This document shows positions 12,297 to 57,634 of a DNA stretch of 64,000 nucleotides, one piece after another (the first letter of the stretch is position 1; every line of letters begins with the position of its first letter). Source of the stretch: Dehalococcoidia bacterium (GTDB taxonomy: Bacteria; Chloroflexota; Dehalococcoidia; GIF9; UBA5629); contig PLME01000011.1 in the NCBI GenBank assembly GCA_003142375.1, forward strand, positions 81,475 through 145,474, written 5' to 3'. A program made the translations under genes and the position numbers. The notes beneath the pieces were generated by a model. That model did no database searches. It worked only from the letters and a program-made list of their open reading frames with translations, and was not told the DNA's origin.

Positions 12297-12372
12297 TGGT
12301 CGGGGTGAGTGGATTCGAACCACCGACTTCATGGTCCCAAACCATGCGCGCTAGCCGCTGCGCTACACCCCG
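12297..12372 (-). tRNA. tRNA-Pro (anticodon TGG), CCA encoded
   Basis: The reverse complement reads CGGGGTGTAGCGCAGCGGCTAGCGCGCATGGTTTGGGACCATGAAGTCGGTGGTTCGAATCCACTCACCCCGACCA. The anticodon loop is TTTGGGA. Confidence 0.85.
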
Positions 12373-12444: not shown

Positions 12445-13173
12445 TTACCGGCAATTGGGGCAGACGTCGAAGAACCCTTTTGGTAGGTCCCATTTCTTGC
12501 GGATGTACTCAAGCTGCTTTTCGGGCGCCCATTCAATGCCGCAGACCTTACATTTTTGCAGCCTGTATTTAATTTTCCAGTTGTAGATATAACGATAACC
12601 TTTTTTATCTTCCATTTTGATAGCGCCGGTCGGGCAGGCGTAGTAGCATGAGCCGCAGCCGATGCATGCCTTGGCGCTTTCGAGATAGGGAGATGCGGGT
12701 CCTTTGGTTATGCCGCGGTTCACCAGGCTGATAGCACTGACACCCACTACCTGCTCACAAACCCTGGCGCAGAGGCCGCAGACAATACAGTTTTCCTTGG
12801 TCCAGTATTCCTTTTCGAAGGATGATTTTTCGATGCCGTATTCAGCCGCCAGCTGCTTAATAACCTTGTTTTCCGAACACCTTGCAAGCAGCAGGTCCAG
12901 CAGCATCTTGCGGTTGCCGACTACCCTGGGGGAATCCGTTTCGACTACCAGGCCTTCCTCAACCGGGAAAAGGCATGAGGTCACAATGCGTTTCCTGGTT
13001 CCACGAGTGATCTCAACGATACATAACCGGCAGGCACCATAGGGTTCTACCGCATCAAGGTTGCATAAAGAAGGTATTTTGATGCCGTGAGCCCTGGCCA
13101 CCTGCAATATATACTGGCCCTTCTCGGCCGTATATTTATTGCCGTTTACAGTCAGAGTAACTAATTCACTCAA
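12445..13173 (-). CDS. NuoG-N-terminal-like polyferredoxin (2Fe-2S + 4Fe-4S clusters), no catalytic domain
   Basis: The likely TTG start at 13173 overlaps the nuoF-like stop by 8 nt; alternative ATG starts are 13203 and 13239. The protein begins VTLTVNGNKYTAEKGQYILQVARAHGIKIPSLC (2Fe-2S) and carries CIVCGLCARVCEQ and CIGCGSCYYACP 4Fe-4S motifs. It ends with a CxxC..CPNC ribbon. Confidence 0.65.
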   Translation of the reverse strand: MSELVTLTVNGNKYTAEKGQYILQVARAHGIKIPSLCNLDAVEPYGACRLCIVEITRGTRKRIVTSCLFPVEEGLVVETDSPRVVGNRKMLLDLLLARCSENKVIKQLAAEYGIEKSSFEKEYWTKENCIVCGLCARVCEQVVGVSAISLVNRGITKGPASPYLESAKACIGCGSCYYACPTGAIKMEDKKGYRYIYNWKIKYRLQKCKVCGIEWAPEKQLEYIRKKWDLPKGFFDVCPNCR

Positions 13174-15025
13174 TCTTAACAGCCCCCAATTTACACACTT
13201 CATAACAGGTGCGGCACTTAATGCATTTAGCCTGATCAAGCACGACCGGCTTTCTTTTGCCCACAGCTGTTATAGCCCCGGCCGGACAGGCTTTGACACA
13301 CAGGCCGCAATCGGGACATTTTTCCTCAATTATCGAGAAGGTGATCAGGTCTTTGCATACGCCGGCCCTGCATTTCTTGAGTTTAATGTGCTCTATGTAT
13401 TCCTCCCTGAAATATTGCATGGTTGTAAGTACCGGGTTGGGTGCTGAGCCGCCCAACTGGCATAGCGCACTATCCCTTAAACAGTGGCCGACTTCTTCCA
13501 GGAGAGGAAGGTCGCTTTCCTTGCCCGCACCGGACGTTATGTCATTTAAAATCTGTCGCATCCTCTTGATGCCTTCGCGACAGGGTACGCATTTACCGCA
13601 TGATTCTTCCTCAAGGAATGAGAGGTAATACTTGGCTATGTCAACCATGCAGTTGTTCTCGTCCATCACGATCATGCCGCCTGATCCCATCATTGAGCCG
13701 ACCTTGGTCAGCGCGTCGAAATCAACAGGCATGTCGAGCATACTCTCCGGCAGGCAACCTCCGGAAGGACCGCCGGTTTGGACGGCCTTGAATTTCTTGC
13801 CTTCGCGAATGCCTCCGCCTATATTAAAAATAATGTCCCGGAGCTGTATGCCCATGGGCACTTCCACCAGGCCAGTATTGTTAACCTTGCCCGTTAGAGA
13901 GAAGATCTTGGTGCCTGTGTTGGTCGGTGTGCCTATCTTCTTGAACCAAGCAGCCCCATTATTGATTATGAGGGGAATATTGGCCCAGGTCTCCACGTTA
14001 TTCAGGTCGCTGGGCCTGTCCCACAACCCTTTTTCCACAGTATGCGTATATTTGGCCCGCGGCTAGCCGACTTTGCCTTCCAGTGATGCCATCAGAGCAG
14101 TGGATTCACCGCAAATAAAGGCGCCGCCACCACGATTGACCCTGACTTCAAAATCGAATCCCGAACCCAGGATATTTTTGCCCAGCAAACCCAATTTCCC
14201 GGCCTGTTCCATGGCATTTATGATGTTCTTCAAGGCTAGCGGGTATTCGTTTCGCACGTAGATATAGCCCTGATGGGAACCTATGGCAAAGGCACCGATA
14301 ATCAAGCCTTCCAGTACGCTATGAGGGTTGCCAGTCAACAGGCCCTCATTGGCATAGGCCCCGGGGTCACCCTCGTCAGCATTGACAATAACGTACTTGA
14401 TATCTCCGTGCGCCTTCCGGCAGCTTTCCCATTTAGCGCCGGTGGTAAACCCACCACCTCCGCGGCCGCGCAGCCCGGATTGCTTAATGATATCGATGAT
14501 TTGCTCGGGCTGATAGTCGAAGAGGGCCTTGGCCAGGGCGGAATATCCGCCTATGGAGATGTAGTCCTCGATGCTAGTCGGATCGATTCTGATATTGTTG
14601 CCCAGGATAATGCGTTTCTGGTTTTTATAGAAAGGCAAATCAGCCTGGGCTGTAATCTCAGCCTTAGTTAACGGGTCTTTGAATAAAAGCCGGCTGATGA
14701 CCTGCTTGTTGAGAACCGTTTTATCCAGAATTTCCGGTACATCTTCCGGCTTTATCTTCTGATAAAAAATATTCCCCGGCTCTACAATGGCAATGGGTCC
14801 CCTTTCGCAGAACCCGTGACAACCTGTTACCTTAAATTCGACCTGGTCGGTCAGGCCTTTTTTATTTATCTCGGCTTTAAAGGCTTCGACAACCGGGTTG
14901 CTGCCATACGGGCGGCAAGCGGTTCCGTTGCAGACCGAAACCCGTGCCTTATCAGTCCCCAGCCCTTTGGCCAGTTTCTTGTTCAGCGCTTCTAGTTCTT
15001 TAGGAGATTTCAGTTTACCCGGCAT
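13166..15025 (-). pseudogene. NuoF-like NAD(P)H-binding flavoprotein, HndC/HydB architecture, interrupted by an in-frame TAG at 14063-14065
   Basis: ORFs 14063..15025 and 13166..14038 are in the same frame. The N-terminal part has a thioredoxin-like 2Fe-2S domain, GGGGF and NADEGDPGA motifs and ends [14 protein letters not shown]. The C-terminal part continues [30 protein letters not shown], carries the ESCGKCVPCREG N3-cluster motif and has 2x CxxCxxCxxxCP. The canonical KPPFPA loop is replaced by KYTHTV. Confidence 0.6.
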
Positions 15026-15040: not shown

Positions 15041-15490
15041 CTACCTATATTTGTTCAGCATCGGCTCAACTTTGTCATTCGTCATATGGCCAAAATACTC
15101 ATCGCCTATCTTGACCACGGGCCCTGTCGCACAGCAGCCCATGCAGTTAACGCTTTCCAGGGTGAAGTTATGGTCTGCCGTCGTCCCGCCCGGGTTAACG
15201 CCAAGTTGGCGCTGCAAGGAGTCGAGGATAAGTTCGCCGCCCCTGACATGGCAGGCGGTGCCCAGGCAGACATTGACGATGTGCTTGCCCCTTTCCTTAA
15301 GGCTAAAGGCACGAAAAAACGTGGCCAGGGCAAATACCTGACTCTGAGGGATGCCCATTTTTTTGCTGACTTTATCAAGGGCTGTTCGAGGCAAGTAGTT
15401 ATATTCGGACTGGATGTCCTGTAATATAGATACAAGCTGACTTTTATCATTACCGTACTTCTTGATTATGGCTGTAACGGCGTCTTTCAT
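15041..15490 (-). CDS. NuoE-like [2Fe-2S] thioredoxin-fold subunit (HndA/HydC-like)
   Basis: CLGTACHVRGG and VNCMGCCATGPV cysteine motifs are present. Its start overlaps the porB stop (ATGA). Confidence 0.8.
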   Translation of the reverse strand: MKDAVTAIIKKYGNDKSQLVSILQDIQSEYNYLPRTALDKVSKKMGIPQSQVFALATFFRAFSLKERGKHIVNVCLGTACHVRGGELILDSLQRQLGVNPGGTTADHNFTLESVNCMGCCATGPVVKIGDEYFGHMTNDKVEPMLNKYR

Positions 15491-16416
15491 TTGATCTTTT
15501 TCCCGGCGAGCATCCTTATCCTATTAAATTCGGTCAGAACATGCTCCTGAATTTCAGCTGTATTCTCTTTGGTCAAATGGCGGAATCTGCCCTGTAGCTT
15601 CAGATAATCCTCCACAGGCCTGAGTTTAGGATAGTCAAAGTTAAGCGTGTATTTTCCATCTTCTATTTCATACATGGGGAAAATACCGGTTTCCACAGCC
15701 AGGCGTCCCATCGTTATGGTAAGGTTTGAGGCGCTGCGCCAGCCGGTCGGGCACACAGATAATATATGAATATACGAGGGACCTTTTATCTGTTTGGCCT
15801 TTTCGATTTTATTCATGATATCGAAGGGATAGCTGGAACAGGATGTCGCCACGTAGCGGATGTTATGTGCGGCAGCTATGGCGGGCATGTTCTTTTTCTG
15901 GGTATGCTGTCCCATGCTTAACTTGCCGGCAGGAGCGGTGGTGGTAGATGCCCCGAAGGGAGTTTCGCTGGACCTTTGAATGCCGGTATTCATATAAGCT
16001 TCATTGTCAAAACATACGTAAATAAAATCGTGACCTCGCTCCAATGCACCAGACAATGACTGCAAGCCAATATCCGCCGTGCCGCCGTCTCCACCCATGG
16101 CCACCACCTTAACTTCCTTGGTATACCCGTGCTTGCGCTTCAGAGCCTTAAGGCCTGACTCGATGCCGGATGCTACGGCTGAAGCATTTTCAAAGAGTGT
16201 ATGTATCCAGGGCACTTCCCAGGCTGTCTCGGGCAGCGGAGTGGACACGATCTCCATGCAACCTGTGGCGTTGGAGATTATGGTATTTCTGCCCAATGCT
16301 TTGCACACATAGCGGACAGCCAGAACCTCACCACAGCCGGAACAAGCACGGTGACCCGAGGCAATATAGTCACTCGCTGTGACAAGTTTGGGAGCATATA
16401 TAGCAAGCGTTTCCAC
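15487..16416 (-). CDS. porB: 2-oxoacid:ferredoxin oxidoreductase beta subunit (TPP-binding)
   Basis: The N-terminal Cys cluster (CSGCGEV...C), a GDG TPP-binding motif and an OFOR-beta-like size are present. The substrate (pyruvate, 2-oxoisovalerate or 2-oxoglutarate) is undetermined. Confidence 0.8.
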   Translation of the reverse strand: METLAIYAPKLVTASDYIASGHRACSGCGEVLAVRYVCKALGRNTIISNATGCMEIVSTPLPETAWEVPWIHTLFENASAVASGIESGLKALKRKHGYTKEVKVVAMGGDGGTADIGLQSLSGALERGHDFIYVCFDNEAYMNTGIQRSSETPFGASTTTAPAGKLSMGQHTQKKNMPAIAAAHNIRYVATSCSSYPFDIMNKIEKAKQIKGPSYIHILSVCPTGWRSASNLTITMGRLAVETGIFPMYEIEDGKYTLNFDYPKLRPVEDYLKLQGRFRHLTKENTAEIQEHVLTEFNRIRMLAGKKIK

Positions 16417-17591
16417 TATTCTCTCACTCCAAACATGATTATTTCCTGCGTTTCCCCGGCCTTCAATTTCTGCATGGCCAGATCAATGAGCGTTTTGAAG
16501 TTATCGGGGGATATATCCCTACCGCCGAGGCCGCCTACAACGCTGGCTACCTGCGGCTTTTTGTCCAGAGTATAAAGGGCAGCCCTGATCTCTGAGCAGA
16601 CCGGAGCCGGCCCGCCCAGCGATATGGCCCTGTCCAGAACAATAACGTTTTGAGCTGCGGACAGCGCTTCCTGTACTTCTTCGTAAGGGAACGGCCGCCA
16701 GAGACGCAGCCTGACAAGACCGATTTTCTTTCCCTCGTCCTGCAGGTCATCGATTGCAATCATGGCGTTTTCGCTGTAGCTACCCATGGTGACAAGAATT
16801 GTCTCGGCGCCATCGGCTTTATATTTTTCTACTGGATTATAATAACGTCCGGTGAGGTCGCCGTATTTCTTCCATGTATCGAGGATGACCTTCTTCGAAG
16901 CCCGTACTGAGGCATCCAACGCCTTTCTAGCCTCGGTATATAAATTCGGCGCGGCAAAGCAACCCATCGTTATAGGATCATCCGGGTCCAGCGGATGGGG
17001 GTATTTGTAAGGCGGAAGGAATTCATCAACCGATTTTTGGTCCAGTATGTATACGGGTTCGATGACATGCGATACATGGAAACCATCGATGTTAATTACG
17101 GTGGGCAGGAGAACATCGGGATGCTCTGCAATGCGAAAAGCGCACAGCGTCTGGTCGAAGGCCTGTTGACCGTTTTCAATAAAGATCTGTATCCAGCCTG
17201 CATCCCTTGTTATCATGGCATCGGAATGGTCCCCCCAGATGTTTAAAGGTCCTGAAAGGGCGCGATTGGCAACTGCCATTACGATCGGAAGCCGCAGGGA
17301 AGCGGCAACCAGCAGCACTTCGTGCATCAATATTAAGCCCTGGCTGGCGGTTGCGGTAAAAGTCCTTGCTCCAACAGCGCATGATCCAAGACAGGCGCTC
17401 ATGGCGGAATGTTCGGACTCTACCGGAATGTATTCCGCATCAAGGTAACCATTGGCGACCATTTCTGCAAGGCTTTCAACGATATGGGTCTGAGGGGTAA
17501 TCGGGTAAGCCGCGATTACATCAACGTTGGCCAGTCTTACAGCTTCTGACACTGCCAACGATGATTCAATACCGACACGCTTCGACGTCAT
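16416..17591 (-). CDS. porA: 2-oxoacid:ferredoxin oxidoreductase alpha subunit
   Basis: ATG 17591 directly follows the porGD stop. The sequence is OFOR-alpha-like (AYPITPQT, GDHSDAM). The ORF track extends to 17633. Confidence 0.8.
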   Translation of the reverse strand: MTSKRVGIESSLAVSEAVRLANVDVIAAYPITPQTHIVESLAEMVANGYLDAEYIPVESEHSAMSACLGSCAVGARTFTATASQGLILMHEVLLVAASLRLPIVMAVANRALSGPLNIWGDHSDAMITRDAGWIQIFIENGQQAFDQTLCAFRIAEHPDVLLPTVINIDGFHVSHVIEPVYILDQKSVDEFLPPYKYPHPLDPDDPITMGCFAAPNLYTEARKALDASVRASKKVILDTWKKYGDLTGRYYNPVEKYKADGAETILVTMGSYSENAMIAIDDLQDEGKKIGLVRLRLWRPFPYEEVQEALSAAQNVIVLDRAISLGGPAPVCSEIRAALYTLDKKPQVASVVGGLGGRDISPDNFKTLIDLAMQKLKAGETQEIIMFGVRE

Positions 17592-17593
17592 GA

Positions 17594-18478
17594 TTATGTT
17601 CCCTCGACCATTTTTATTGCCTGTGTCCAGCATTCATGGGCGCACATCCCACATCCTTTACAATAAAACAGATTAGCCCGGTAATAGCCTTCTTCATTCG
17701 GTTGAATGCATCCCTCGGGGCAAAACAGAGAGCATATTCCGCATTTGATACATTTCTTATCATCCCATACCGGATGCTGAGATTTCCAATCACCGGTGCC
17801 GAACTTTTTGGTATTGCCCGGTTCGGTAACTATGCATCCCACCAGCAACTCGCGCCAGCCCGGAATTTTTTCCATAGGAAATGATTTGGATTTTTTCGTA
17901 CCGGTGGTCGTTATCTGACTTATAACGGTGCTATTGTAAGCGCGCATGCAGGCCTCAAAGTTGGAACTGGCGCGGGCGCCAAACCTTTCATTAAGAGGCG
18001 CCTTTAGGGACTCAAATTTAACTACTTCGGCAGCTTTAACCATGGCTCCCACCATTGTGGTATTAACTATATTGACACCTAACAATTCGCGGGCGATGGA
18101 TGCAGCATCAACTACTGCCAGCTTCCAGTCTCCGCTGAATTCCTGCTGGAGATCTTCGACTGACCGGGTACTATTAACCACCAGACAGCCTCCGGGCTTT
18201 AAACCGTCCGTCACATTTATAAGTGTAACGAGCCCGGGATCCAGGACAACAACTATATCTGGCTTAACTACACCGGATCGAATGCGGATCGGGTTCTCAG
18301 CATCTATCCTGTTGAATGCGAGTACAGGAGCTCCGCGCCTTTCCGGGCCAAAGCTGGGAAAAGCCTGGGCAAATTTCCCCTCGTGTATGGCAGCCAAGGC
18401 AATTAGTTCGGCGGACGTGACAGCACCCTGTCCGCCCCGCCCGTGCCATCGGATTTCAATCGAAGTGTCCTTTTTCAT
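17594..18478 (-). CDS. 2-oxoacid:ferredoxin oxidoreductase fused gamma-delta subunit
   Basis: The gamma domain (GRGGQGAVT) is fused to a delta ferredoxin with CIKCGICSLFCP and CKGCGMCAHEC motifs. Confidence 0.8.
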   Translation of the reverse strand: MKKDTSIEIRWHGRGGQGAVTSAELIALAAIHEGKFAQAFPSFGPERRGAPVLAFNRIDAENPIRIRSGVVKPDIVVVLDPGLVTLINVTDGLKPGGCLVVNSTRSVEDLQQEFSGDWKLAVVDAASIARELLGVNIVNTTMVGAMVKAAEVVKFESLKAPLNERFGARASSNFEACMRAYNSTVISQITTTGTKKSKSFPMEKIPGWRELLVGCIVTEPGNTKKFGTGDWKSQHPVWDDKKCIKCGICSLFCPEGCIQPNEEGYYRANLFYCKGCGMCAHECWTQAIKMVEGT

Positions 18479-18511: not shown

Positions 18512-18585
18512 TGCGCCCCTGGAGGGACTTGAACCCTCGCACCCGGCTTCGGAGGCCGGCGCTCTATCCCCTGAGCTACAGGGGC
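18512..18585 (-). tRNA. tRNA-Arg (anticodon CCG)
   Basis: The reverse complement reads GCCCCTGTAGCTCAGGGGATAGAGCGCCGGCCTCCGAAGCCGGGTGCGAGGGTTCAAGTCCCTCCAGGGGCG. The anticodon loop is CTCCGAA. CCA is not fully encoded. Confidence 0.8.
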
Positions 18586-37557: not shown

Positions 37558-39387
37558 ATGAATAAAAGCCGCAAACTGCTTTCCGGAAATGAAGCCATCG
37601 CAATTGGCGCCTACCATGCCGGTGTACTCGTCGCAACAGCCTACCCCGGCACGCCGAGCACCGAGATACTGGAGAATCTCTCAAAATACAGGGACATCTA
37701 TGCCGAATGGTCTACCAATGAAAAGGTAGCCATGGAGGTCGGGCTGGGCGCCTCCTATGCCGGCGTCAGAACCCTGGTTTCCATGAAACACGTAGGTCTA
37801 AATGTCGCTGCCGACCCATTCATGGCAGCGGCTACTACCGGTATACATGGCGGCCTGGTTGTCATATCTGCTGACGATCCCGGAATACACAGCTCCCAGG
37901 GTGAGCAGGACAACCGTCATTTCGCCAAGCTGGCCCGGGTGCCGATGCTGGAGCCGTCCGACAGCCAGGAAGCTTATGATCTCATTGAAATTGCCTACGA
38001 TCTGAGCGAAAAATACGACACCCCCGTCCTTTTCAGAATAACTACCCGCGTGGCCCACTCCAAGTCAGTCGTTGAATTGAATGAAAAGCGTATTAGAAAG
38101 GAAAGAACCAAGCATTTCCATCACGATGTAGGCAAATATGTGATGCTGCCCACTAACGCACGCAACCGTGTGCCTAACATGCATAGGCGGATCGTCGAGC
38201 TGACAAAGTATGCTGAAAGCACGCCGGTCAACCAGATAATCGATGGAGACAGCAAAATAGGAATCATATCAAGCGGTGTAAGTTATGAGTATGCCAGGGA
38301 AGTGTTCCCCCAGGCGTCTTTCTTGAAACTGGGCATGACTTATCCGTTGCCGCCTGATCTGGTGCAGAAGTTCGTCGGCAAGGTTAAAAAACTCTTTGTG
38401 GTTGAGGAATTGGACCCCTTCCTGGAAGAGAACATCAAAATAATGGGGGTCCACGTTGAAGGCAAGAAGCACCTCCCGCGCTTCGGTGAACTGAACAAGT
38501 CCGCAGTTCATCACGCGGCTGTGCAGGCAGGTCTTTCAGATCTGGCCAATCCGGTCGACGAAGTGAACCTGGTGAAGAACCTGCCGGGCAGGCCTCCCCT
38601 CCTTTGCCCCGGCTGTCCCCATTCAGGTGCGTTTTTTATTTTAAGCACCATTGGTAAGCGGGCCAAAGTACTGGATGCCGAGGGAAGATCGGAGGAAGAG
38701 ACCGGGCTGATTATTACGGGTGATATCGGCTGTTATACCTTGGCAACCTACCCACCTTTGCGCGCCATGGATACCACGGCCTGCATGGGCGCCAGTATTG
38801 GACAGGCCATAGGCCTTGAAAAGGCCGGGGTAAGCAGCAAGATCGCTGCCGTCATAGGGGATTCGACCTTCATGCATTCCGGTATTACAGGAATTGTAGA
38901 TGCCGTTTATAACGATGCGAAAATAACAGTGATCATATTGGATAACGGGACTACCGCCATGACCGGTCATCAGGACCATCCGGGCTCCGGTATATCTGCG
39001 CAGGGCGTAGCCACCGAGAAGGTTGATATCGAGAAGCTGGTACTGGGAGCCGGCGTTAAAGACGTCCATGCGGTTAATGCATTTGACGTCAAGGCTGTCA
39101 GAGCTGCTATCAGGTCGGCTCTGGATAATCCGTCTTTGTCGGTGGTCATTGTAAGAGGTAAATGCGCCGTAATAAACAGAGTCCGAAAAAACCCCAGGCA
39201 GATAGATCTGGCTAAGTGCAACGATTGCGGTGTATGCGTAATGATAGGCTGCCAGGCCATTCAAAAACGCAACGACAAACTGTATATTGACGCTACCACC
39301 TGCATGGGAGACGAGTGCAGGATTTGCGAACAACTTTGCCCCAAACAGGCAATTGCACCGGTATCAGGGAAATCGGTGGGTGGATGA
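37558..39387 (+). CDS. iorA: indolepyruvate:ferredoxin oxidoreductase alpha subunit
   Basis: The N-terminus (LLSGNEAIAIGAYHAGVLVATAYPGTPSTEILE), TPP domain and C-terminal 2x[4Fe-4S] (CNDCGVCV, CRICEQLCP) are present. The size is 609 aa. Confidence 0.8.
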   Translation: MNKSRKLLSGNEAIAIGAYHAGVLVATAYPGTPSTEILENLSKYRDIYAEWSTNEKVAMEVGLGASYAGVRTLVSMKHVGLNVAADPFMAAATTGIHGGLVVISADDPGIHSSQGEQDNRHFAKLARVPMLEPSDSQEAYDLIEIAYDLSEKYDTPVLFRITTRVAHSKSVVELNEKRIRKERTKHFHHDVGKYVMLPTNARNRVPNMHRRIVELTKYAESTPVNQIIDGDSKIGIISSGVSYEYAREVFPQASFLKLGMTYPLPPDLVQKFVGKVKKLFVVEELDPFLEENIKIMGVHVEGKKHLPRFGELNKSAVHHAAVQAGLSDLANPVDEVNLVKNLPGRPPLLCPGCPHSGAFFILSTIGKRAKVLDAEGRSEEETGLIITGDIGCYTLATYPPLRAMDTTACMGASIGQAIGLEKAGVSSKIAAVIGDSTFMHSGITGIVDAVYNDAKITVIILDNGTTAMTGHQDHPGSGISAQGVATEKVDIEKLVLGAGVKDVHAVNAFDVKAVRAAIRSALDNPSLSVVIVRGKCAVINRVRKNPRQIDLAKCNDCGVCVMIGCQAIQKRNDKLYIDATTCMGDECRICEQLCPKQAIAPVSGKSVGG

Positions 39388-40000
39388 TTTGGATCGAAAG
39401 AAACAAGATATTTTAATGGTGGGCGTGGGCGGACAGGGCATCATCCTGGCCAGCGATATTTTAGGAGAGGCGGCGCTGGAAAAGGGCCTGGATGTTAAAA
39501 AGACAGATACTCTGGGCATGGCACAGCGCGGAGGAAGCGTCACCAGCCACCTGCGTATCAGCCAAAAGGTATGGTCTCCCTTAATCAGCCCTGCGGAAGC
39601 AGACATCCTGCTGGCCTTTGAGAAGCTCGAGGCAGCCAGGTGGGTAAACTACTTGAAACCGGACGGACTGGCCATTATTAACAATCTCGCCATTCCGCCC
39701 CTGTCTATTTCGCTTGGCTCGCAAAAATATCCGGGCGATCAGGAGATCATCGATTCATTCAAGCAAAGGACTAAGAAAGTACATCTTGTGGATGGTTCCG
39801 CACAAGTGGCCCTTCTTGGCGATACCAGGACCCTCAATATTTTTATGCTGGGATTTTTGTCGGTGTCCTTGCCATTGGATATCGATTTAGATGCCTGGAA
39901 AAGCTGTCTGCGAAAACAACTACACCCCAGGATACTCGATATAAATTTGCGCGCTTTCCAAAAGGGCCGCGAGGAGGCTTCAAGTGTCAATCTCGGATAA
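39380..40000 (+). CDS. iorB: indolepyruvate:ferredoxin oxidoreductase beta subunit
   Basis: The sequence ILMVGVGGQGIILASDILGEAAL is typical of IorB. The start is uncertain: GTG 39380 or ATG 39416. The ORF track start 39287 overlaps iorA. Confidence 0.75.
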   Translation: MDDLDRKKQDILMVGVGGQGIILASDILGEAALEKGLDVKKTDTLGMAQRGGSVTSHLRISQKVWSPLISPAEADILLAFEKLEAARWVNYLKPDGLAIINNLAIPPLSISLGSQKYPGDQEIIDSFKQRTKKVHLVDGSAQVALLGDTRTLNIFMLGFLSVSLPLDIDLDAWKSCLRKQLHPRILDINLRAFQKGREEASSVNLG

Positions 40001-41171
40001 CGTGCGCCGGAGGATGGCAGATGGGTCCTGGACCAGGCGCATGTTCGAGGAAGCAGCCGTGCTCAAGAAAAAGCATGGTGAACACAACGTTTTCGATCTC
40101 TCCCTGGGGAATCCGATTATTGAACCTCCGGCGGAATTTAAACATGCTTTAAAAAATTTCATGGAAAATCCTTTGCCGGGCAGGCACCGTTATATGGAAA
40201 ACGCCGGTTATCAGGACACGAGGGATGCTGTAGCCAAGCAGGTCTCGCTAGAAAACGGTCTTGACCTTGGAGGTCATGACATCGTCATGACTGTAGGAGC
40301 GGCCGGCGCTATCAACGTCATACTCAAAACCCCGCTTAACGCCGGCGAAGAGGTCATTGTATTCGCACCGTATTTTATGGAGTACGACAACTATATAGAT
40401 AACCACCAGGGCGTGACCAGGGTAGTTAAAACCAGCGATCAATTCTTGCCGGACCTTGGCGATTTAGAGAGAAATATCAATGAAAAGACCAAAGCTGTCA
40501 TCATCAACTCTCCCAACAATCCCACCGGCGTTGTCTACAGTGAAGACTTGTTAAGACAGATAGCAGATATCCTTGTCAGAAAGGAAAAACAATACGGCAC
40601 ATCTATTTACATGATCAGCGACGAAGCCTACAGCAGCCTGATTTACGATGGGCTTAAATATGTACCTGCCCTCAGAATATATCACCGCTGCATGATAGCA
40701 ACGTCCCACTCCAAAGACCTGGCTTTGCCTGGGGAACGTATAGGTTATATTGCAATTAACCCGGAAATAGGGAATAAGGGCGAAATAGTCAGCGGCCTCA
40801 TTTTCTGCAACCGTATACTGGGATTTGTAAATGCCCCCGCCCTCATGCAGAACCTTATCCGCCACCTGCAGCATGTAACCGTATCAATTCCGGAGTATCA
40901 ACAAAAGCGCGATTTCTTGTATAATAGCCTGACTGAAATGGGATACAAGCTTGTAAAACCCCAGGGCGCCTTCTATATGTTTCCGCGGACGCCCATCGAA
41001 AACGACATAGAGTTTGTACACGAATTGCAGAAATCTAATGTCCTGACCGTCCCCGGTCGTGGATTCGGCACCCCCGGCTATTTCCGCATCTCATATTGCG
41101 TCAGCCAGCCAACCCTCGAAGGCTCGCTCTTCGGCTTTAAAAAGGTTGCTGAGCAGTTTAAACTCTTTTAG
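39984..41171 (+). CDS. class I/II PLP-dependent aminotransferase (aromatic/aspartate aminotransferase-like)
   Basis: The GTG start follows a GAGGAGG RBS. A SHSKDLALPGERIGY Lys-PLP motif and the NPTG motif are present. Confidence 0.75.
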   Translation: MSISDNVRRRMADGSWTRRMFEEAAVLKKKHGEHNVFDLSLGNPIIEPPAEFKHALKNFMENPLPGRHRYMENAGYQDTRDAVAKQVSLENGLDLGGHDIVMTVGAAGAINVILKTPLNAGEEVIVFAPYFMEYDNYIDNHQGVTRVVKTSDQFLPDLGDLERNINEKTKAVIINSPNNPTGVVYSEDLLRQIADILVRKEKQYGTSIYMISDEAYSSLIYDGLKYVPALRIYHRCMIATSHSKDLALPGERIGYIAINPEIGNKGEIVSGLIFCNRILGFVNAPALMQNLIRHLQHVTVSIPEYQQKRDFLYNSLTEMGYKLVKPQGAFYMFPRTPIENDIEFVHELQKSNVLTVPGRGFGTPGYFRISYCVSQPTLEGSLFGFKKVAEQFKLF

Positions 41172-41216
41172 ATTGGGCGGTTTATTTCAACGGATCGCCC
41201 TCCTCATGTAATCTAC

Positions 41217-43109
41217 ATGAAAAACGCGCACACGATTCCACAATTGATACAGGAGAACTACCGTAAGTGGGGTAGCCAGACCGCCATGTGCGTTAAAAAG
41301 CGCGGCATCTGGCATAAGTTCAACTGGAACGAATATTTTAATACGGTAAAATTCTTTTCTCTGGGTTTAACCAGCATCGGGCTCCAGCGGGGCGATGTTG
41401 CATGCATCATCGGGGATAACGAGCCCGAATGGTTCTGGGGAGAATTTGCAGTGCAGGCCGCCGGCGGCATAGCGACTGGCTCTTTTGTCGATTCTATCCC
41501 CTCCGAGCTGAAATATATTGCCGGTCATTCCGGAGCAAGTTTTGCCATAGTAAATGACCAGGAGCAGGCCGACAAATTCCTGGAAATCTGCGCTGAGCTT
41601 CCAGCACTTAAGAAGGTTGTCTACTGGGATGCCAAAGGGCTGAATAACTACGACCACCCCATGCTTATAAGCTTCGAGAATGTAATAGAAGAGGGCAAAG
41701 CATTCGACCGTTCCAACCCCGGACGTTTTGAGGAAAATATTGCACAGGGCCAACCTGATGATACCGCTTTCATTTACTATACTTCCGGCACAACCGGGCT
41801 GCCCAAAGGTGCAATTCTGACTCATCGAGCTTTGATACAGACTGCGCGCGGCTTTACCAGCGTTTATCCCCTATTCAAAGATGATGACCTGGTCTCCAAT
41901 TTCCCGGCCGCCTGGGTGGGCGACAGTTATTTTGCGACTATCCCCCATATCCTGACCGGGGCTCGGCTGAATTTTGCCGAAGAACCTGAAACAATAGCCG
42001 AGGATACACGCGAAGTGGGACCTGATTTTGCCATCTACGGCCCGAGACAGTGGGAGAGCCTGGTCAGCGAAATTCAGGTCAAGATGACCGATGCGCACCC
42101 GCTCAAGAGATTTTTCTATCACATGCTGCTGCCCGTCGGCTATAAGATTGCCGACATGAACTTTCAAAATAAGAAACCGGATGTATTCTGGAGTACTCTT
42201 CATGCCATAGCGTATTACTTGCTGCTGCGGCCTTTAAAAGACAGGCTCGGCCTGAGTAAAGTGAGATTCGCAGTCACCGGCAGCTCCGTTTTAAGCCTCG
42301 ATACCTTTAGACTAATCCATGCTATCGGGATAGAGCTCAGGCAAACTTACGCCAGCACGGAAGCCGGATTCATCTCCTCTCACACCAAGGGAGAGATCGA
42401 TTTTCAGAGCGTAGGCCGTCCGGCGCTGGGCGTTGAAGTACGTATAGCCAGGGACGGAGAATTGCTGGTAAGGAGCGATTGCCTTTTCAAGGAATATTTA
42501 AATGAGCCGGAGAAAACGAGAGCAGTGAAGATCAAAGGCTGGTGCCACACCGGCGACGCCGTAAACATCAATGACAACGGCCACCTGATCTTTCTTGACC
42601 GTCTCGAGCATATGGGTACGCTGGTGACCGGCGCCAGGTATGCACCGCAATATATTGAGGGTAGATTGAGGTTCAGCCCTTACATAAAGGATGCCATGGT
42701 AATTGGCGGCAAGGATAAGTCCTTTGTGGCTGCCATGATCAACATCGACTTCGCCATGGTCGGCAAATGGGCCGAGCGGAAGGGCATCACATATACCACA
42801 TTTGTAGACCTTTCCCAAAAAGAGGAAGTAGCCAACCTGATAAAAAAAGACCTTTCCAGGGTAAACAGCTATTTGCCGGAATTATCCAGGGTAAAGAGAT
42901 ATATGCTTATGCATAAGGAATTCGATCCTGACGAAGCGGAGTTGACCAGGACGCGCAAGCTGCGTCGCGAGTTTATGGAAGTGAGGTATAACCCACTGAT
43001 CGTAGCTATCTATGCCGGGCAAAACAGTTTGAATGTCGAAGCTTCGGTAACCTACAGGGACGGCCGGAAGGGCGTGGTATCGACCGGCATCAGGATATGG
43101 GACCTGTAA
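41217..43109 (+). CDS. AMP-dependent synthetase/ligase, long (~630 aa) FAA1-type acyl-CoA ligase
   Basis: The AMP-binding motif IYYTSGTTGLPKGAILTH and a TGD motif are present. It has a C-terminal extension typical of COG1022-type ligases. Confidence 0.8.
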   Translation: MKNAHTIPQLIQENYRKWGSQTAMCVKKRGIWHKFNWNEYFNTVKFFSLGLTSIGLQRGDVACIIGDNEPEWFWGEFAVQAAGGIATGSFVDSIPSELKYIAGHSGASFAIVNDQEQADKFLEICAELPALKKVVYWDAKGLNNYDHPMLISFENVIEEGKAFDRSNPGRFEENIAQGQPDDTAFIYYTSGTTGLPKGAILTHRALIQTARGFTSVYPLFKDDDLVSNFPAAWVGDSYFATIPHILTGARLNFAEEPETIAEDTREVGPDFAIYGPRQWESLVSEIQVKMTDAHPLKRFFYHMLLPVGYKIADMNFQNKKPDVFWSTLHAIAYYLLLRPLKDRLGLSKVRFAVTGSSVLSLDTFRLIHAIGIELRQTYASTEAGFISSHTKGEIDFQSVGRPALGVEVRIARDGELLVRSDCLFKEYLNEPEKTRAVKIKGWCHTGDAVNINDNGHLIFLDRLEHMGTLVTGARYAPQYIEGRLRFSPYIKDAMVIGGKDKSFVAAMINIDFAMVGKWAERKGITYTTFVDLSQKEEVANLIKKDLSRVNSYLPELSRVKRYMLMHKEFDPDEAELTRTRKLRREFMEVRYNPLIVAIYAGQNSLNVEASVTYRDGRKGVVSTGIRIWDL

Positions 43110-43119
43110 GTACAAGAAA

Positions 43120-43992
43120 ATGGATATATTAATTCAAAATATCATTACGGGCGTTGCCACCGGCATGGTATATGCCCTGATTGCGCTGGGTTTTGCCCTT
43201 ATCTGGAAGTCCAGCCGTGTTGCTAACCTGGCGCTGGGACAATTAGTTCTGATATCCTCATGGTTTACTTACAGCATGCTCGTTCAATTCAAATTTCCGT
43301 TCTGGTTGGGAATGATATTGACCATCGCCTTTGCAATTTTGCTGGGCTGGCTGATTGAGAGACTGGCATTGCGACCACTGATAGGACAGCCGATACTTTC
43401 ACTTATTGCCATAACATTGGGGCTGGCCTATTTCCTGGAGGGTTTCACCGCGTTTATCTGGCCGCAGGGCCAGGGCAACCTGCCCAAAGTCTTCCCACAG
43501 ACTTCAATTCAGATTGGTCCAGCCATGATACAACAGGAATTGCTGTGGGCAGCCGTCATCTCCTTGATTCTATTCATTTTGCTATCGGTCTTTTTTAAAT
43601 ATCACAGGATGGGCATCGCCATGAGGGCCACAGCCGATGACCAGCTGGCTGTCCAGGCCTGCGCCGTTCCGGTAAACCGTGTATTTTCCATGTCGTGGAT
43701 TTTCGCCTGTGTGGTTGCAGCTATCGGCGGTGTCCTCATATCCAGTATCGCAGCTATCAACTATGGGTTAGTCGAAACGGGCTTCAAATCATTTTCGGTG
43801 GTTATCCTGGGAGGAATGGAGTCGTTCCTGGGCTGCATCGTAGCCGGCCCAATAATTGGGTTGTGTGAAACGTTCGGCGGCTCGCAATTCGGCTCAAGCA
43901 TTAAAGAAGTAATACCGTTCATAATCATCGTGATAGTAATTATGATTAAACCCTTTGGATTATTCGGCGAAGAGAGGATTGAGAGGATTTAA
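43120..43992 (+). CDS. branched-chain amino acid ABC transporter permease, LivH family
   Basis: It is a membrane protein with a LivH-like C-terminus (IMIKPFGLFG). Confidence 0.8.
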   Translation: MDILIQNIITGVATGMVYALIALGFALIWKSSRVANLALGQLVLISSWFTYSMLVQFKFPFWLGMILTIAFAILLGWLIERLALRPLIGQPILSLIAITLGLAYFLEGFTAFIWPQGQGNLPKVFPQTSIQIGPAMIQQELLWAAVISLILFILLSVFFKYHRMGIAMRATADDQLAVQACAVPVNRVFSMSWIFACVVAAIGGVLISSIAAINYGLVETGFKSFSVVILGGMESFLGCIVAGPIIGLCETFGGSQFGSSIKEVIPFIIIVIVIMIKPFGLFGEERIERI

Positions 43993-43994
43993 TT

Positions 43995-45050
43995 ATGAGT
44001 CTGCCCTGCGGTATACGTAATTTCTCATATCATACCGATATAGCCATTATCAGGACCAAAACCCAATGGGTATTGTTCATATTGTTCATGCTGGCGCTAT
44101 TTGTTTTGCCGTTATATTTGCCTAGATCCTGGTTTGACACTGTTAATTCTATCGGTATCCTGCTGATTGCGGTGGTCGGTTTAAACATCCTGATGGGATA
44201 CTGCGGCCAGCTATCACTGGGTCATGCCGGGTTTATGGCAGTTGGCGCATTTACTTCTGCTCTGCTGACCGGCAACCTGCATATGCCGTTCCTGCTGGCG
44301 CTTATTATTTCCGGTCTGTCTGCCGGGATAATCGGCCTTATATTCGGCATCCCTTCCTTGCGCGTGAAAGGGTTTTACCTGGCTATCGTAACAATTGCAG
44401 CCCAATTCATCATTATCTGGATACTTCAGAACTGGACGGATATTACTCACGGCTCCAACGGCCTTGATGTATTGCCGGCCTCAATATTCAATTGGCAATT
44501 CGACAGTGAGATCAAACAATTTTATTTAATATTTACAATTGCTGTAATCAGCATTCTGTTTGCCACGAATCTGGCTAGAAGCCGCATCGGCCGCGCCTTT
44601 ATTGCCATCAGAGATAACGACCTGGCGGCAGAGGTAATGGGAATCAATGTTTTCAGCTACAAGCTGCTGGCCTTCTTCCTGGGCTGTTTTCTGGCAGGCA
44701 TCGCCGGATCCCTGTACTCGCAATATAGAGGTCATATTACTTACGAAGACTTTACGTTTCAGCAATCGATATTGTATATAGGCATGCTCATCATAGGTGG
44801 CCTCGGAAGTTCACTGGGCCCCATACTTGGCACGGTTATCATAGAGACCCTGCAAAAGTCGTTGACTAACACAGTGGCGCCCTGGCTTGAGCATACCATG
44901 ACCTTCATGCCGACCGGCTTTTCTTCCGGCCTCAATCTAATGTTATTCGGCCTGGCTATCATCTTAATCCTGATTTTTGAACCTAGGGGGTTGGCCCATT
45001 TATGGGCATTGTTCAAATCTTCGTACAGGATGTGGCCGTTTTCTTACTAA
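43995..45050 (+). CDS. branched-chain amino acid ABC transporter permease, LivM family
   Basis: It is a membrane protein in the LivM position. Confidence 0.8.
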   Translation: MSLPCGIRNFSYHTDIAIIRTKTQWVLFILFMLALFVLPLYLPRSWFDTVNSIGILLIAVVGLNILMGYCGQLSLGHAGFMAVGAFTSALLTGNLHMPFLLALIISGLSAGIIGLIFGIPSLRVKGFYLAIVTIAAQFIIIWILQNWTDITHGSNGLDVLPASIFNWQFDSEIKQFYLIFTIAVISILFATNLARSRIGRAFIAIRDNDLAAEVMGINVFSYKLLAFFLGCFLAGIAGSLYSQYRGHITYEDFTFQQSILYIGMLIIGGLGSSLGPILGTVIIETLQKSLTNTVAPWLEHTMTFMPTGFSSGLNLMLFGLAIILILIFEPRGLAHLWALFKSSYRMWPFSY

Positions 45051-45118
45051 ATGCTTTAAATACAAATGTAAATTTGATATAATGCATCTTCTTTTACGAA
45101 AAAAGTGAGGAGGTTTAA

Positions 45119-46387
45119 ATGAAGAAGTCCCGTGTAGTCTTGGTAGTCACATTGGTTCTCTTACTTACATCCCTGGTTACCCTGATGTCGGCGTGCACCA
45201 CCCAGCCGTCGGCGGAAAAGAAAGCCTTTAAACTCGGCTTGAGCATTCCCCTGACGGGCCCTGCAGCCGAAAAAGGCGCCCCCATCGGCCATGGTCAACT
45301 CGATGCTTTTAAATACATCAATGATGAGTTGGGCGGAGTTGCCGGATATAAAATCGATCCTGACTGGTACGACACGAATTATGATACACAGAAAGCTACC
45401 GACATCGCCAAGAAACTTATGACGGACGGTTGCCTGTTCTTTACCGTGGTGGCTTCCAAGGATATGAGTGCATCACAGGTAATAGCCAATAGGGCCGGAT
45501 TCCCCGGCATGATATGCTTTAGCTCCCCATCAAACACCCATCCCCCGGCGCATATCTACGCTCAGCTTCCGGATTACGGCGATGATTGGACCGCATTCAC
45601 AAAGTACTATATGCAGAATATCTGGAAGGGTCCGGGCAAACCAAAGATGGCACTCGAGCTGCTGAACAACTCCACAGGTTCCGGAGTCGCTAATGCGGCC
45701 AGGGCCATGGCAGACCAGCTCGGTGTTGAGATTGTTGATACTGAACAACACTCAGCCACCACTATCTCTGAAACAGATGCCCTGAACAGGATCAAAGCTA
45801 AGAATCCCGACATACTCTTTATCTCGAGTACACCTGCTCCTACAGCCATTATTCTGAAGAATGCGCGTGACCTGAACATGATCCCCGGTATGACTGTGGC
45901 CTGTGCGCATGCAAGTTTTACCAAAGCCCTTATCGATGCCGCCGGCAAAACCGTGGCCGAAGGCGTTTATGGCGTCTATCCGACGGTTAACTTTGGGGAC
46001 AACGTGCCGGGCATGGCCAAGATGGTAGAGTACTGTAAGGCCCAGCATCCGGAATATATGGGAAACAATGACTATCTGGTAGGCTGGGCATCCAGCCTTG
46101 TCAATGCGGAAATCTTAAAACAGGCCATACAGAATTCCAATGTCGACGATCTTTTTAAAGGAGACGCTGCTTCATGGCAACTGGCGGAGACCAACGGCTT
46201 TATGAAGGTCAAAGGGTATGATGTAGGCGGATTGCAGGGTCCGGTGGATTTTTCCGGTACTCTTGATAAACGCGGTTCCAAATCCGTCAAAATATTCCAG
46301 ATCCAGAATGGCCTGATGGTCTCACTCTCCGGCTGGGTTGATGCGCCCAATATTCCCTATGAGACCTTCGATTGGTTCGGTAAGTAA
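45119..46387 (+). CDS. ABC transporter substrate-binding lipoprotein, LivK family
   Basis: The signal peptide has a lipobox (LMSACT). A type I PBP fold is recognisable. It lies after the permeases, which is an atypical order. Confidence 0.8.
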   Translation: MKKSRVVLVVTLVLLLTSLVTLMSACTTQPSAEKKAFKLGLSIPLTGPAAEKGAPIGHGQLDAFKYINDELGGVAGYKIDPDWYDTNYDTQKATDIAKKLMTDGCLFFTVVASKDMSASQVIANRAGFPGMICFSSPSNTHPPAHIYAQLPDYGDDWTAFTKYYMQNIWKGPGKPKMALELLNNSTGSGVANAARAMADQLGVEIVDTEQHSATTISETDALNRIKAKNPDILFISSTPAPTAIILKNARDLNMIPGMTVACAHASFTKALIDAAGKTVAEGVYGVYPTVNFGDNVPGMAKMVEYCKAQHPEYMGNNDYLVGWASSLVNAEILKQAIQNSNVDDLFKGDAASWQLAETNGFMKVKGYDVGGLQGPVDFSGTLDKRGSKSVKIFQIQNGLMVSLSGWVDAPNIPYETFDWFGK

Positions 46388-46404
46388 GTTTAAATCCAGG
46401 TAAT

Positions 46405-47196
46405 ATGTTAAAACTCAACAACATTGAGGTATCGTACCTCAATGTGGTGAAAGTATTGCACGGCATTTCGATCACCGTCGAGAACGGTGTCGTTGTTGCC
46501 CTTCTCGGAGCTAACGGGGCCGGAAAGACGACTACTCTAAAGGCGATTTCCGGCCTCCTCCGCATTGAAGAGGGCGAGATCAATGACGGCACCATTGAAT
46601 GGGACGGAATCCGGATAGATAAGAAAAATGCCGTCGACATCGGCAAACTGGGTATAGTGCAGGCGCTGGAGGGCAGGCGGGTCTTCGAGCACCTCAATGC
46701 CGAGGAAAATCTTCTGGTTGGGGCTTTCAGCCGCTCCAATTTAAAGGATGTTAAGGCTGACTTGAATATGGTCTATTCCTATTTCCCCCGCCTGGAAAGT
46801 CTGAAACACAACATTGCCGGTTATCTATCGGGCGGAGAGCAGCAGATGCTGGTTATCGGCCGGGCCATGATGGCTGCTCCCCGGTTGATGATGCTGGATG
46901 AACCATCGCTGGGCCTGGCGCCCATGGTAGTTGATCAGATATACGACATCATTAAGAGATTCAACATGGATAGAAAAACCGCCATTCTGCTGGTTGAACA
47001 AAACGTGAGGGTTGCCTTGAACACCGCACATTACGGATATGTGATGGAGAACGGGCGGGTAGTTTTGGACGGTTCAGCCGATTACCTGAAAGGCCGTGAA
47101 GACGTGAAGGAATTCTATATGGGTATTTCGGCCTCCGGAGAGAAAAAGAGCTATAAAGACGTCAAGCACTATAAACGGCGAAAAAGGTGGCTCTGA
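46405..47196 (+). CDS. ABC transporter ATP-binding protein, LivF family, with basic C-terminal tail
   Basis: GANGAGKTT, LSGGEQQMLVIG and MMLDEPSLGL are present. The C-terminal tail is KSYKDVKHYKRRKRWL. Confidence 0.85.
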   Translation: MLKLNNIEVSYLNVVKVLHGISITVENGVVVALLGANGAGKTTTLKAISGLLRIEEGEINDGTIEWDGIRIDKKNAVDIGKLGIVQALEGRRVFEHLNAEENLLVGAFSRSNLKDVKADLNMVYSYFPRLESLKHNIAGYLSGGEQQMLVIGRAMMAAPRLMMLDEPSLGLAPMVVDQIYDIIKRFNMDRKTAILLVEQNVRVALNTAHYGYVMENGRVVLDGSADYLKGREDVKEFYMGISASGEKKSYKDVKHYKRRKRWL

Positions 47197-47220
47197 CAGT
47201 TTAGAAGGCCGTCCGCTTCC

Positions 47221-48033
47221 CTATTTTTCTCCCAGGTATGCGGCAATCACTTCAGGATTCCCCGATATCTCCTCGGGGGTTCCCTCGGCTATTTTGCGTC
47301 CGAAATCCAGTACAATAATCCTGTCGGCTAGGTCCATAACCACTCCCATATCGTGCTCAATAAGCACGATAGATTCTACACCATCTCGCAACACGGGTGT
47401 AGCCGGATAAGATTCGCCCTGTCCCTCGAAAATATCATAAATAAAGCGGACGATATCTTCCTTCTCCTCAAGGTTCATACCGGCCATGGGCTCATCCAAA
47501 AGAAGGACCCTGGGCTCCAGGGCCAGCGCCCGGCCCAATTCCACGCGTTTCCTGAGTCCGTAAGGCAAAGAGCTGACTATACTTTTTCTGATATGCTCGA
47601 TCTCAAGGAAGTCAATGATGTCTTCCACAGTTTTACGATGCTCCAACTCTTCCTTTTGAGCAGGCCCGAAATATAAAAATGTACTTAGAATATTCTGCTT
47701 CATCAGGACATGCCGTGCCGCCATAATGTTATCCAGCGTGCTCAGCCCCGAATAAAGCTCAATATTCTGGAAAGTCCTGGCAATTCCCATCCTGGCAATT
47801 TTGTCGGAACGTACCCCGTTGATCTTCCTTTTATTAAATAGAATCTGACCTTTCTGGGGCTTATAGAAGCCGTTAATGCAATTTAACAGGCAGGTCTTTC
47901 CGGCTCCATTGGGCCCAATGATAGCCAGCACCTCGTTCTTTTTGATCTCCAGGTTAATATCGGTCAGAGCCCTTACGCCCCCGAACCACAGTGAAAGGTC
48001 CTTGATACTTAAAGCTGTTTCTTTCCCATTCAT
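47221..48033 (-). CDS. ABC transporter ATP-binding protein, LivG family (inverted relative to its cassette)
   Basis: GPNGAGKTC and LLLDEPMAGM are present. An insertion GQGESYPATPVLRDGVE precedes the H-loop. It is convergent with livF. Confidence 0.8.
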   Translation of the reverse strand: MNGKETALSIKDLSLWFGGVRALTDINLEIKKNEVLAIIGPNGAGKTCLLNCINGFYKPQKGQILFNKRKINGVRSDKIARMGIARTFQNIELYSGLSTLDNIMAARHVLMKQNILSTFLYFGPAQKEELEHRKTVEDIIDFLEIEHIRKSIVSSLPYGLRKRVELGRALALEPRVLLLDEPMAGMNLEEKEDIVRFIYDIFEGQGESYPATPVLRDGVESIVLIEHDMGVVMDLADRIIVLDFGRKIAEGTPEEISGNPEVIAAYLGEK

Positions 48034-48083
48034 AAACGTAATACCGGAATTGGAAATTTTATGTTACCACCAAAGCCGCGTTA

Positions 48084-49271
48084 TTAAAAGTCTTTATCCC
48101 CTTTTTTACGTTTCGCTTCAACGCTTCTGATCTTCTGCTCGATTCTCTTATCCTCGTCGGTTACGTGATAGGACGCCAGAAATTTCTGCTTGAAGGCAGG
48201 AAATTGACCGGCGCTGATTGATTCACGTATTTCCGATACCAGAGAGTTCATAAAAAACAGGTTATGAATTGTGGCCAGCCTGTAGGCCAGCAATTCCTCG
48301 CATTTAAAAAGATGGTGTACATAGGCCTGAGTAAAATTCCGGCACGTGAAACAGCCGCAAGAGTCTTCAATTGGTATAAGTTTGTCGCCGAAAACTGCAT
48401 GCTTGATATTTATCCTTCCGTTGCGTGTGTAAAGCGCCCCGTTGCGCGCTACCCTTGTAGGCAAAGCGCTGTCGAATATATCGATGCCCCTGCCGATACC
48501 ATCAACTATGTCTTCGGGGGATCCTACACCCATTAAATAGCGCGGTTTATCTTCCGGCATTAGTTCCACGGTGCGATCTACAATCTCCCACATAGACGAC
48601 TTGGATTCTCCCAGACTGAGGCCGCCTATGGCATAACCGGGAAAATCTATGGCCGTTATTTGTTTGGCGGAAAGTTTCCTGAGTTCGGGTATCAGACCAC
48701 CCTGTATAATCCCAAATAGAAGCTGGCCGTTGTCCCCGTGCGACCGGAAGCATCTGCCTGCCCATTCAGTTGTATAAGCAACGGCGCTTGCCATCTGCTC
48801 TTTCTTCGCCGTGCTTTCCGGGCAAACGTCCAACACCATGATAATATCGGCGCCCAGCTTTTCCTGCAGATATACAGCATTTTCAGGAGAGATGTGGTGC
48901 TCGCTGCCGTCGATATGCGATCGGAATACAACTCCGTCCGGAGTTATCTTGCGGAATGAGGATAAACTGAAGATCTGGTAACCCCCGCTGTCGGTCAGGA
49001 TAGGTTTGTTCCATGACATGAATTTATGCAATCCGCCGGCCTTTTCAATTATCTCGACGCCTGGGCGTAAATAAAGGTGATAGGAGTTACAAAGGATCAT
49101 CTTGATGTCTATTTCTTCAAGGTCCTGCGGGGTCAAGGCCCTTACCGTCGCCTGACTCCCGACCGGTAAAAATATAGGGGTTTGCACCTTGCCATGCAGC
49201 ATGTTCAATTCGGCAAGCCTGGCCTTCGATGTAGGGTAAGTGGCCTGTAGCTTAAATGTCTTATCCGGCAT
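48084..49271 (-). CDS. tgt: queuine tRNA-ribosyltransferase (tRNA-guanine transglycosylase)
   Basis: The LTDSGGYQIFSL and DKPRYLMGVGSPEDIVDGI motifs are present, along with a CxCxxC Zn site (CGCFTCRNFTQAYVHHL). Confidence 0.9.
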   Translation of the reverse strand: MPDKTFKLQATYPTSKARLAELNMLHGKVQTPIFLPVGSQATVRALTPQDLEEIDIKMILCNSYHLYLRPGVEIIEKAGGLHKFMSWNKPILTDSGGYQIFSLSSFRKITPDGVVFRSHIDGSEHHISPENAVYLQEKLGADIIMVLDVCPESTAKKEQMASAVAYTTEWAGRCFRSHGDNGQLLFGIIQGGLIPELRKLSAKQITAIDFPGYAIGGLSLGESKSSMWEIVDRTVELMPEDKPRYLMGVGSPEDIVDGIGRGIDIFDSALPTRVARNGALYTRNGRINIKHAVFGDKLIPIEDSCGCFTCRNFTQAYVHHLFKCEELLAYRLATIHNLFFMNSLVSEIRESISAGQFPAFKQKFLASYHVTDEDKRIEQKIRSVEAKRKKGDKDF

Positions 49272-49292
49272 CAGATCACTCTGCCGTCCTTG

Positions 49293-51610: not shown

Positions 51611-51737
51611 TTTAGATCGGTCCCTGGTCTGAAGTTGAAATGGAAGACCAAAATAACTGTAATATGATATACCGTTTTTATCTCTTCATCAAAATCGAGT
51701 TGGGTTTTTCACGACTGGAAGATGGCCGGATCAACAG

Positions 51738-52661: not shown

Positions 52662-52717
52662 AGCGTTAATATCATAATAGGGCCAAAAGAAATATTACTA
52701 TTTATCAGGATTTAAAA

Positions 52718-53170: not shown

Positions 53171-53174
53171 GTCT

Positions 53175-55811: not shown

Positions 55812-55901
55812 AGGTGTTCACCTCGGAGCATTTTATATAAGTACGTGTGTGTTAGTCAATACGAATTTAAATCTGCTTTGCCGGGTTCAAGCTACCGCCT
55901 T

Positions 55902-55930
55902 TTAACAAGTCAAATAACATGTGTTACAAT
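55902..55930 (+). promoter_or_regulatory. candidate sigma70 promoter TTAACA-17-TACAAT upstream of the FmdB-like gene
   Basis: The -35 box is at 55902-55907, the spacer is 17 nt and the -10 box is at 55925-55930. Confidence 0.3.
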
Positions 55931-55951
55931 CATCAAATCCGGGTGATAAGT

Positions 55952-56305: not shown

Positions 56306-56319
56306 AACGAAGGTTGATC

Positions 56320-56424: not shown

Positions 56425-56426
56425 CG

Positions 56427-57534: not shown

Positions 57535-57541
57535 ATTTAGC

Positions 57542-57570: not shown

Positions 57571-57634
57571 CCCCGATTTGGTGGGTATGCGCTGTTTTGC
57601 AGCGTGACCATAATTAATCGAATAAGGAGGTACC

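Follow-up and report, generated by a model that had tools for sequence, protein, structure and literature searches.

In a Dehalococcoidia genome, the gene for BfuB, a subunit encoded by a Por-Bfu operon, is interrupted by one in-frame TAG, which is an ordinary recent loss-of-function (knockout) allele or a base-call error and not a recoded codon. With a probability of roughly 65%, we favour a real, very recent G-to-T nonsense allele that segregates in the population. That the reads contain the T as a true allele, and what it would mean for function as described below, is inferred from the comparisons. The gene belongs to a known family. The window, meaning the whole stretch of DNA that was analysed, is 64,000 nucleotides (64 kb) long.

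The reading frame at 13166-15025 on the minus strand consists of 619 sense codons and a single internal stop. This stop, the TAG at 14065-14063, stands at codon 321 of the NuoF-like BfuB, with a derived T at 14065 in place of the G of a GAG codon (Glu). The minus strand reads GAA GGC AAA GTC GGC TAG CCG CGG GCC AAA TAT ACG CAT ACT GTG GAA AAA GGG here, so that a C directly follows the TAG on its 3' side, and the frame is unchanged across the stop. The first-pass annotation had described an in-frame TAG that splits a NuoF-like gene without a change of frame and with recognisable NuoF sequence on both flanks. Translation of 13166-15025 in one frame and the Pfam domains on either side of the stop agree with this description. 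The 5' fragment (14066-15025, minus strand), which would give a truncated product of 320 aa if the TAG is real, carries the 2Fe-2S_thioredx and Complex1_51K domains. The 3' fragment (13166-14062, minus strand, 298 codons) carries SLBB, NADH_4Fe-4S and two Fer4 domains.

The interrupted gene encodes BfuB of a Por-Bfu operon. Its Pfam domain set comprises an N-terminal thioredoxin-like 2Fe-2S domain, the FMN/NAD(H) domain, SLBB, the NuoF 4Fe-4S domain and a C-terminal 2x[4Fe-4S] ferredoxin domain. The closest database proteins are 619 aa long and come from Dehalococcoidia/Chloroflexota MAGs, and the intact allele on record (P0241) has the same length. Among solved structures the best relative is WorB (9mqx_B), which matches residues 29-615 with an E-value of 7e-233. 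In the operon, the BfuB domain set is found together with BfuC, a short BfuA and four POR domains/subunits, the combination by which Por-Bfu is recognised.

All genes of the operon lie on the minus strand and were assigned by Pfam. The 2-oxoacid:ferredoxin oxidoreductase (POR) genes span 15487-18478, with POR gamma-delta at 17594-18478, POR alpha at 16416-17633 and POR beta at 15487-16416. They are followed by the NuoE-like BfuC (15041-15490, 149 aa), which terminates in an ordinary TAG, by BfuB, and by the short BfuA (12445-13173, 242 aa), which resembles the N-terminal part of NuoG and starts with TTG. BfuA and the end of BfuB share 8 nt, and from this overlap the two genes are probably translationally coupled. 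Upstream of the operon is tRNA-Arg(CCG) at 18513-18585 and downstream is tRNA-Pro(TGG) at 12297-12372, both on the minus strand. The same gene order is found in the loci L002-L008 and L092. The start of POR alpha is ambiguous; annotation pipelines call a protein of either 405 aa, with a 40-nt overlap with the gamma-delta gene, or 391 aa.

The Por-Bfu arrangement, including the flanking tRNAs, has been described for Dehalococcoides and other Chloroflexi (Schut et al. 2022, PMC9304861). Por-Bfu belongs to the BfuABC family and is a putative electron-bifurcating pyruvate/2-oxoacid oxidoreductase of a family that is biochemically uncharacterised (Schut et al. 2022, PMC9304861). The window agrees with this description in its order of POR gamma/delta, alpha, beta, BfuC, BfuB and short BfuA and, as in D. 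mccartyi 195, in the tRNA genes that flank the operon and in its taxon, Dehalococcoidia. It differs in the premature TAG within the BfuB of this assembly.

A few codons after the stop, the frame reads KYTHTV (14032-14049, minus strand), where HydB, NfnB and NuoF chains have a (K/R)PP(F/Y)P form. The replacement of KPPFPA by KYTHTV had been taken as something unusual, which the homologues contradict. PRAKY[V/I/T]HT[V/I/A] is present in all 120 best homologues, K[Y/H][I/V/T][H/R][T/S/A] in most of 80 GTDB species-representative loci, and WorB has KYIHA at the place of KYTHT, with Val instead of Glu at the position of codon 321. By sequence comparison, KYTHTV is thus the subfamily counterpart of the KPPFPA loop, normal for a BfuB clade that it marks, and no sign of decay.

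WorB is the closest comparison, since WorB of the Acetomicrobium mobile WorABCSL complex (9mqx chain B) has the same domain set as BfuB and binds FMN and NAD in the cryo-EM structure (Feng et al. 2025, PMC12318220). Its partner is a tungsten aldehyde oxidoreductase (PMC12318220), whereas the partner of BfuB in the window is POR. The FMN/NADH-binding fold of BfuB is also homologous to that of HydB/HndC of bifurcating [FeFe]-hydrogenases, of NfnB and of NuoF/Nqo1 of complex I, and all of these share the framework GGGAF(I/V)CGE...LEG...PR...NNVET. The difference lies in the loop, which is (K/R)PP(F/Y)P(A/V) in HydB/HndC, NfnB and NuoF/Nqo1 but KY(T/I/V)HT in the clade of the window. The KY(T/I/V)HT loop reliably distinguishes the Por/Wor-type BfuB clade from HydB and NuoF with their PPFPA loop, and calls of 'decay' that are based on this motif are false alarms in this clade.

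At codon 321 itself, Glu is found in 120 of the 120 closest homologue proteins. As protein databases could hide interrupted genes, we also read 80 GTDB species-representative loci as raw DNA, and all 80 have a sense codon there (Glu in 67, Arg in 9, and Met, Gly, Asp and Phe once each). Neither the 120 proteins nor the 80 raw-DNA loci contain a stop at this position. The proposal that a single GAG-to-TAG difference explains the stop is therefore confirmed by the Glu of the homologues and by the GAG of near-identical assemblies.

This distribution also bears on whether the TAG could be decoded by pyrrolysine, by a suppressor tRNA or by programmed readthrough to give a full-length BfuB, which we regard as extremely improbable. 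A C after the UAG makes for a rather leaky stop, basal near-cognate readthrough of about 1e-4 to 1e-2 is possible for any stop, and pylTSBCD or a tRNA-CUA may lie elsewhere in the genome, outside the 64-kb window. However, conserved recoding, for which orthologues with the same TAG would speak, is refuted by the homologue counts, and assemblies that are otherwise near-identical have GAG. TAG is furthermore an ordinary terminator in the window and is not avoided: about 17 of 58 long non-overlapping ORFs (about 30%) end in it, among them BfuC and the H+-PPase, and the products of these two have the same lengths in many other assemblies. The first-pass annotation had named 1676-2107 and 57635-59779 as ORFs with an ordinary TAG stop, which both have, and its view that a reassigned code is unlikely holds with these counts. 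The four tRNAs of the 64-kb window include no tRNA-CUA. Moreover, the 120 nt on the 3' side of the stop show no unusual structure that could stimulate readthrough (MFE of -33.9 kcal/mol, with shuffled sequences at -35.1 on average, z=+0.30), and no known UAG recoding system would insert Glu. The absence of the stop from every relative and the other tests leave only non-specific basal readthrough. Very improbable, too, are decoding of UAG through a suppressor or pyrrolysine tRNA encoded outside the window or through efficient context-dependent readthrough and, as a milder variant, a loss of BfuB that is adaptive and recurrent in Dehalococcoidia, with the nonsense allele here and the deletion in D. 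mccartyi AP017649 as its instances.

The two live options are two of the three that the first-pass annotation had listed, a very recent inactivating mutation and a sequencing error, and both have to be judged against assemblies of the same population. Such contigs were found through exact-sequence look-up of neighbouring proteins, and the comparison covers ENA, JGI, NCBI (GCA_003171355.1) and Logan assemblies from several samples. The population is highly clonal, with 0-3 mismatches per 2-22 kb and no indels (3166-25025 and 36008-64000 against L092-L108). Away from the stop, the window is 99.98-100% identical to many assemblies, again with no indels. Apart from the stop, BfuB does not differ from the intact allele P0241, so that decay elsewhere in the gene is neither expected nor seen. 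For the same reason a dN/dS estimate for the two halves, which the first-pass annotation had suggested, is uninformative, the gene being the intact allele but for one base.

All five other assemblies that cover 14065 have G, that is GAG, and an uninterrupted BfuB frame, which the window lacks. The longest comparison is with a 413-kb contig of ENA ERZ19980492 (L092), where 21,860 bp contain one mismatch, at 14065 only. JGI 3300036886 (L008/L093) has 2 and 3 mismatches over 14,539 and 15,994 bp, JGI 3300036885 (L009) has 2 over 3,263 bp and JGI 3300038461 (L094) has 1 over 2,444 bp. The fifth assembly is a Logan contig of SRR7151603 (L109), which starts at window position 14071. As judged from these alleles, the T at 14065 is derived and private to the window assembly, and among the data sets compared it is seen in the window only.

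The protein records show the same asymmetry. The intact 619-aa P0241 is on record from JGI and ENA contigs, 4 of them in the cluster table or 6 by contig look-up, whereas the 320-aa truncated form is known from a single contig at NCBI (146,109 bp, presumably that of the window). Exact-product look-up of the 298-aa and 290-aa forms of the 3' fragment found neither on record. A 35-mer that spans the site, with the variant base set to N, had no match in the JGI metagenome_contigs or the GTDB genome_contigs; these two collections evidently do not hold this population and therefore yield no allele count.

That every other covering assembly of the population has G, including one from SRR7151603, and that the 320-aa product comes from a single contig would also be expected if the T were a sequencing, PCR or consensus artefact of one assembly and the organism had GAG and an intact BfuB. 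We regard such an artefact as a serious possibility, though clearly the less probable of the two. On the coding strand, GGC stands directly before the site. Illumina sequencing is known for G/T miscalls and for errors after GGC, and a G-to-T change is also typical of damage or cross-talk. Other assemblies of the population have private single-base differences at a similar rate, some of them at contig ends. However, the T stands in the consensus of a 146-kb contig, for which it would be expected to form the majority path of the source sample. In addition, the rest of the window is free of errors against the other assemblies, with 0 mismatches and no indels in 47635-64000 and one mismatch in 3166-25025. 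Among the private mismatches of the other assemblies, those at 16821 and 50011 are 10 bp or less from contig ends and look like end artefacts.

Only one other position was found where the window differs from all covering assemblies. At 40333 the window has C and five assemblies have T. This position lies in a gene for a PLP aminotransferase (40041-41171, plus strand), where the change is Leu117Pro; the residue is I, V or L in 120 of 120 homologues. Both changes private to the window, the nonsense change and Leu117Pro, look damaging, which speaks against a real allele and is what random errors would give. A damaging pair is, however, expected equally from changes that selection has not filtered and from errors. 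The ancestral state of 40333 was considered as a test for a distinct lineage; as Pro is the derived residue, it does not separate a real haplotype from an error.

What points more towards two alleles is the way in which independent contigs of SRR7151603, built with a k-mer abundance filter, break at both private sites. The Logan contig SRR7151603_71741 (L001) matches the window along 2,139 bp with 100% identity and breaks off at 14066, one base short of the T. A second contig, SRR7151603_4837, is 21.5 kb long and ends at 40334, adjoining the private SNP at 40333. De Bruijn contigs end at forks of the graph or where k-mers drop below the threshold. It is very unlikely that two contig ends fall by chance on both of the window-private sites, and their placement suggests that both sites are heterogeneous in the SRR7151603 reads. 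The coverage of this run cannot be trivially low, given a 21.5-kb contig from the same organism, and at the coverage which this contig implies the breaks are hard to obtain from isolated read errors.

The third contig of the run, L109, is its only Logan contig that covers the site, and because it carries G, the wild type is present in SRR7151603. A G-carrying contig beside the broken ones favours two co-occurring haplotypes. A point against the real allele is that L001 and L109 overlap by only 6 nt (GTCGGC), unlike the k-1 = 30 nt that a simple SNP bubble (k=31) predicts. As a further caveat, the window might derive from the same reads as the SRR7151603 contigs. The first-pass annotation had held that resequencing with GAG or another sense codon would make the TAG an assembly error. 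GAG was indeed found in other assemblies, but the rule is too strict, as the breaks exactly at the site point to two alleles in the reads more than to a pure assembly mistake.

If the nonsense allele is real, it would belong to a single haplotype within a nearly clonal Dehalococcoidia population, and the allele usually assembled from this population would be the wild-type GAG. The TAG would be read as a stop and translation would end after residue 320. The 320-aa product would lack the rest of the FMN/NAD pocket, SLBB, the NuoF 4Fe-4S cluster and the C-terminal ferredoxin domain. The start of BfuA overlaps the stop of BfuB, and BfuA would probably lose its translational coupling. The Bfu module of the TAG haplotype would most likely be non-functional, with the upstream POR genes left untouched. 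A single derived change in an undecayed gene with the wild type co-occurring is what is seen in ordinary nonsense polymorphisms or nascent bacterial pseudogenes, and nothing sets the BfuB TAG apart from these.

The least probable explanation of all is a functional split, in which the 320-aa N-terminal protein and a re-initiated C-terminal protein assemble non-covalently. In-frame GTG (14038) and TTG (14026) codons do follow the stop after 9 and 13 codons, and the TTG is preceded by GGAAAAAGGG. This purine run, however, abuts the TTG with no spacer, and the GTG has no purine-rich leader, so the 3' fragment appears to have no credible restart site. The break would also fall inside the FMN/NAD-binding domain, with a loss of 8-12 conserved residues (PRAKYTHT...), and we found no naturally split orthologue at the position of codon 321.

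Returning to the nonsense allele, other short BfuB entries in the databases have to be kept apart from it. Many 'NuoF' entries of 308 aa begin with the conserved Met of LMASLEG, which lies some 10 residues before the site. We considered whether they represent a conserved split or a Sec/stop codon upstream and rejected this, as one of the two entries examined is a deletion remnant and the other lies on a frameshifted contig of ENA ERZ25039512, an assembly in which many genes are fragmented. The remaining 308-aa entries, which lie mostly on contigs of 1-3 kb, are probably truncated gene calls, judging from the listed lengths. The deletion remnant is the Por-BfuB of D. mccartyi AP017649.1 (L006 4880-5930; 537480-548406), where roughly 265-270 codons are missing. 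Some 36 codons from the N-terminal end are fused, out of frame, to the part from roughly codon 300 on, and the remnant is annotated as a 308-aa 'NuoF', and the rest of the Por-Bfu operon is present. This remnant suggests that the Bfu module can be dispensable.

One further candidate for independent pseudogenisation was the pair of P0256 (180 aa) and P0121 (379 aa) on a 43-kb contig, which we rejected because it comes from the same noisy ERZ25039512 assembly, where BfuA is split as well. In the contigs 35619 and 54523 of ENA ERZ25039512 (L007, L011), the BfuB, BfuA and CoA-transferase genes are fragmented by frameshifts. Frameshifted entries of this kind inflate the count of apparent 'split NuoF' proteins in databases.

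For annotation, the gene should be labelled as a pseudogene or nonsense allele of BfuB (Por-Bfu), unless the reads show an error, in which case it should be corrected to GAG. It should not be entered as two genes or as a recoding event, and beyond annotation hygiene the TAG matters little. With 0-2 differences per 12-22 kb across samples, the population is clonal enough for single damaging variants to stand out, and these could be used for tracking haplotypes if the reads are examined.

The window also contains a second 2-oxoacid oxidoreductase cluster at 37558-48033 (both strands), with a fused alpha/beta protein of 609 aa and a gamma subunit. Next come the aminotransferase, an AMP-forming ligase at 41217-43109 and an ABC transporter for branched-chain amino acids, and the cluster looks like an amino-acid-fermentation module.
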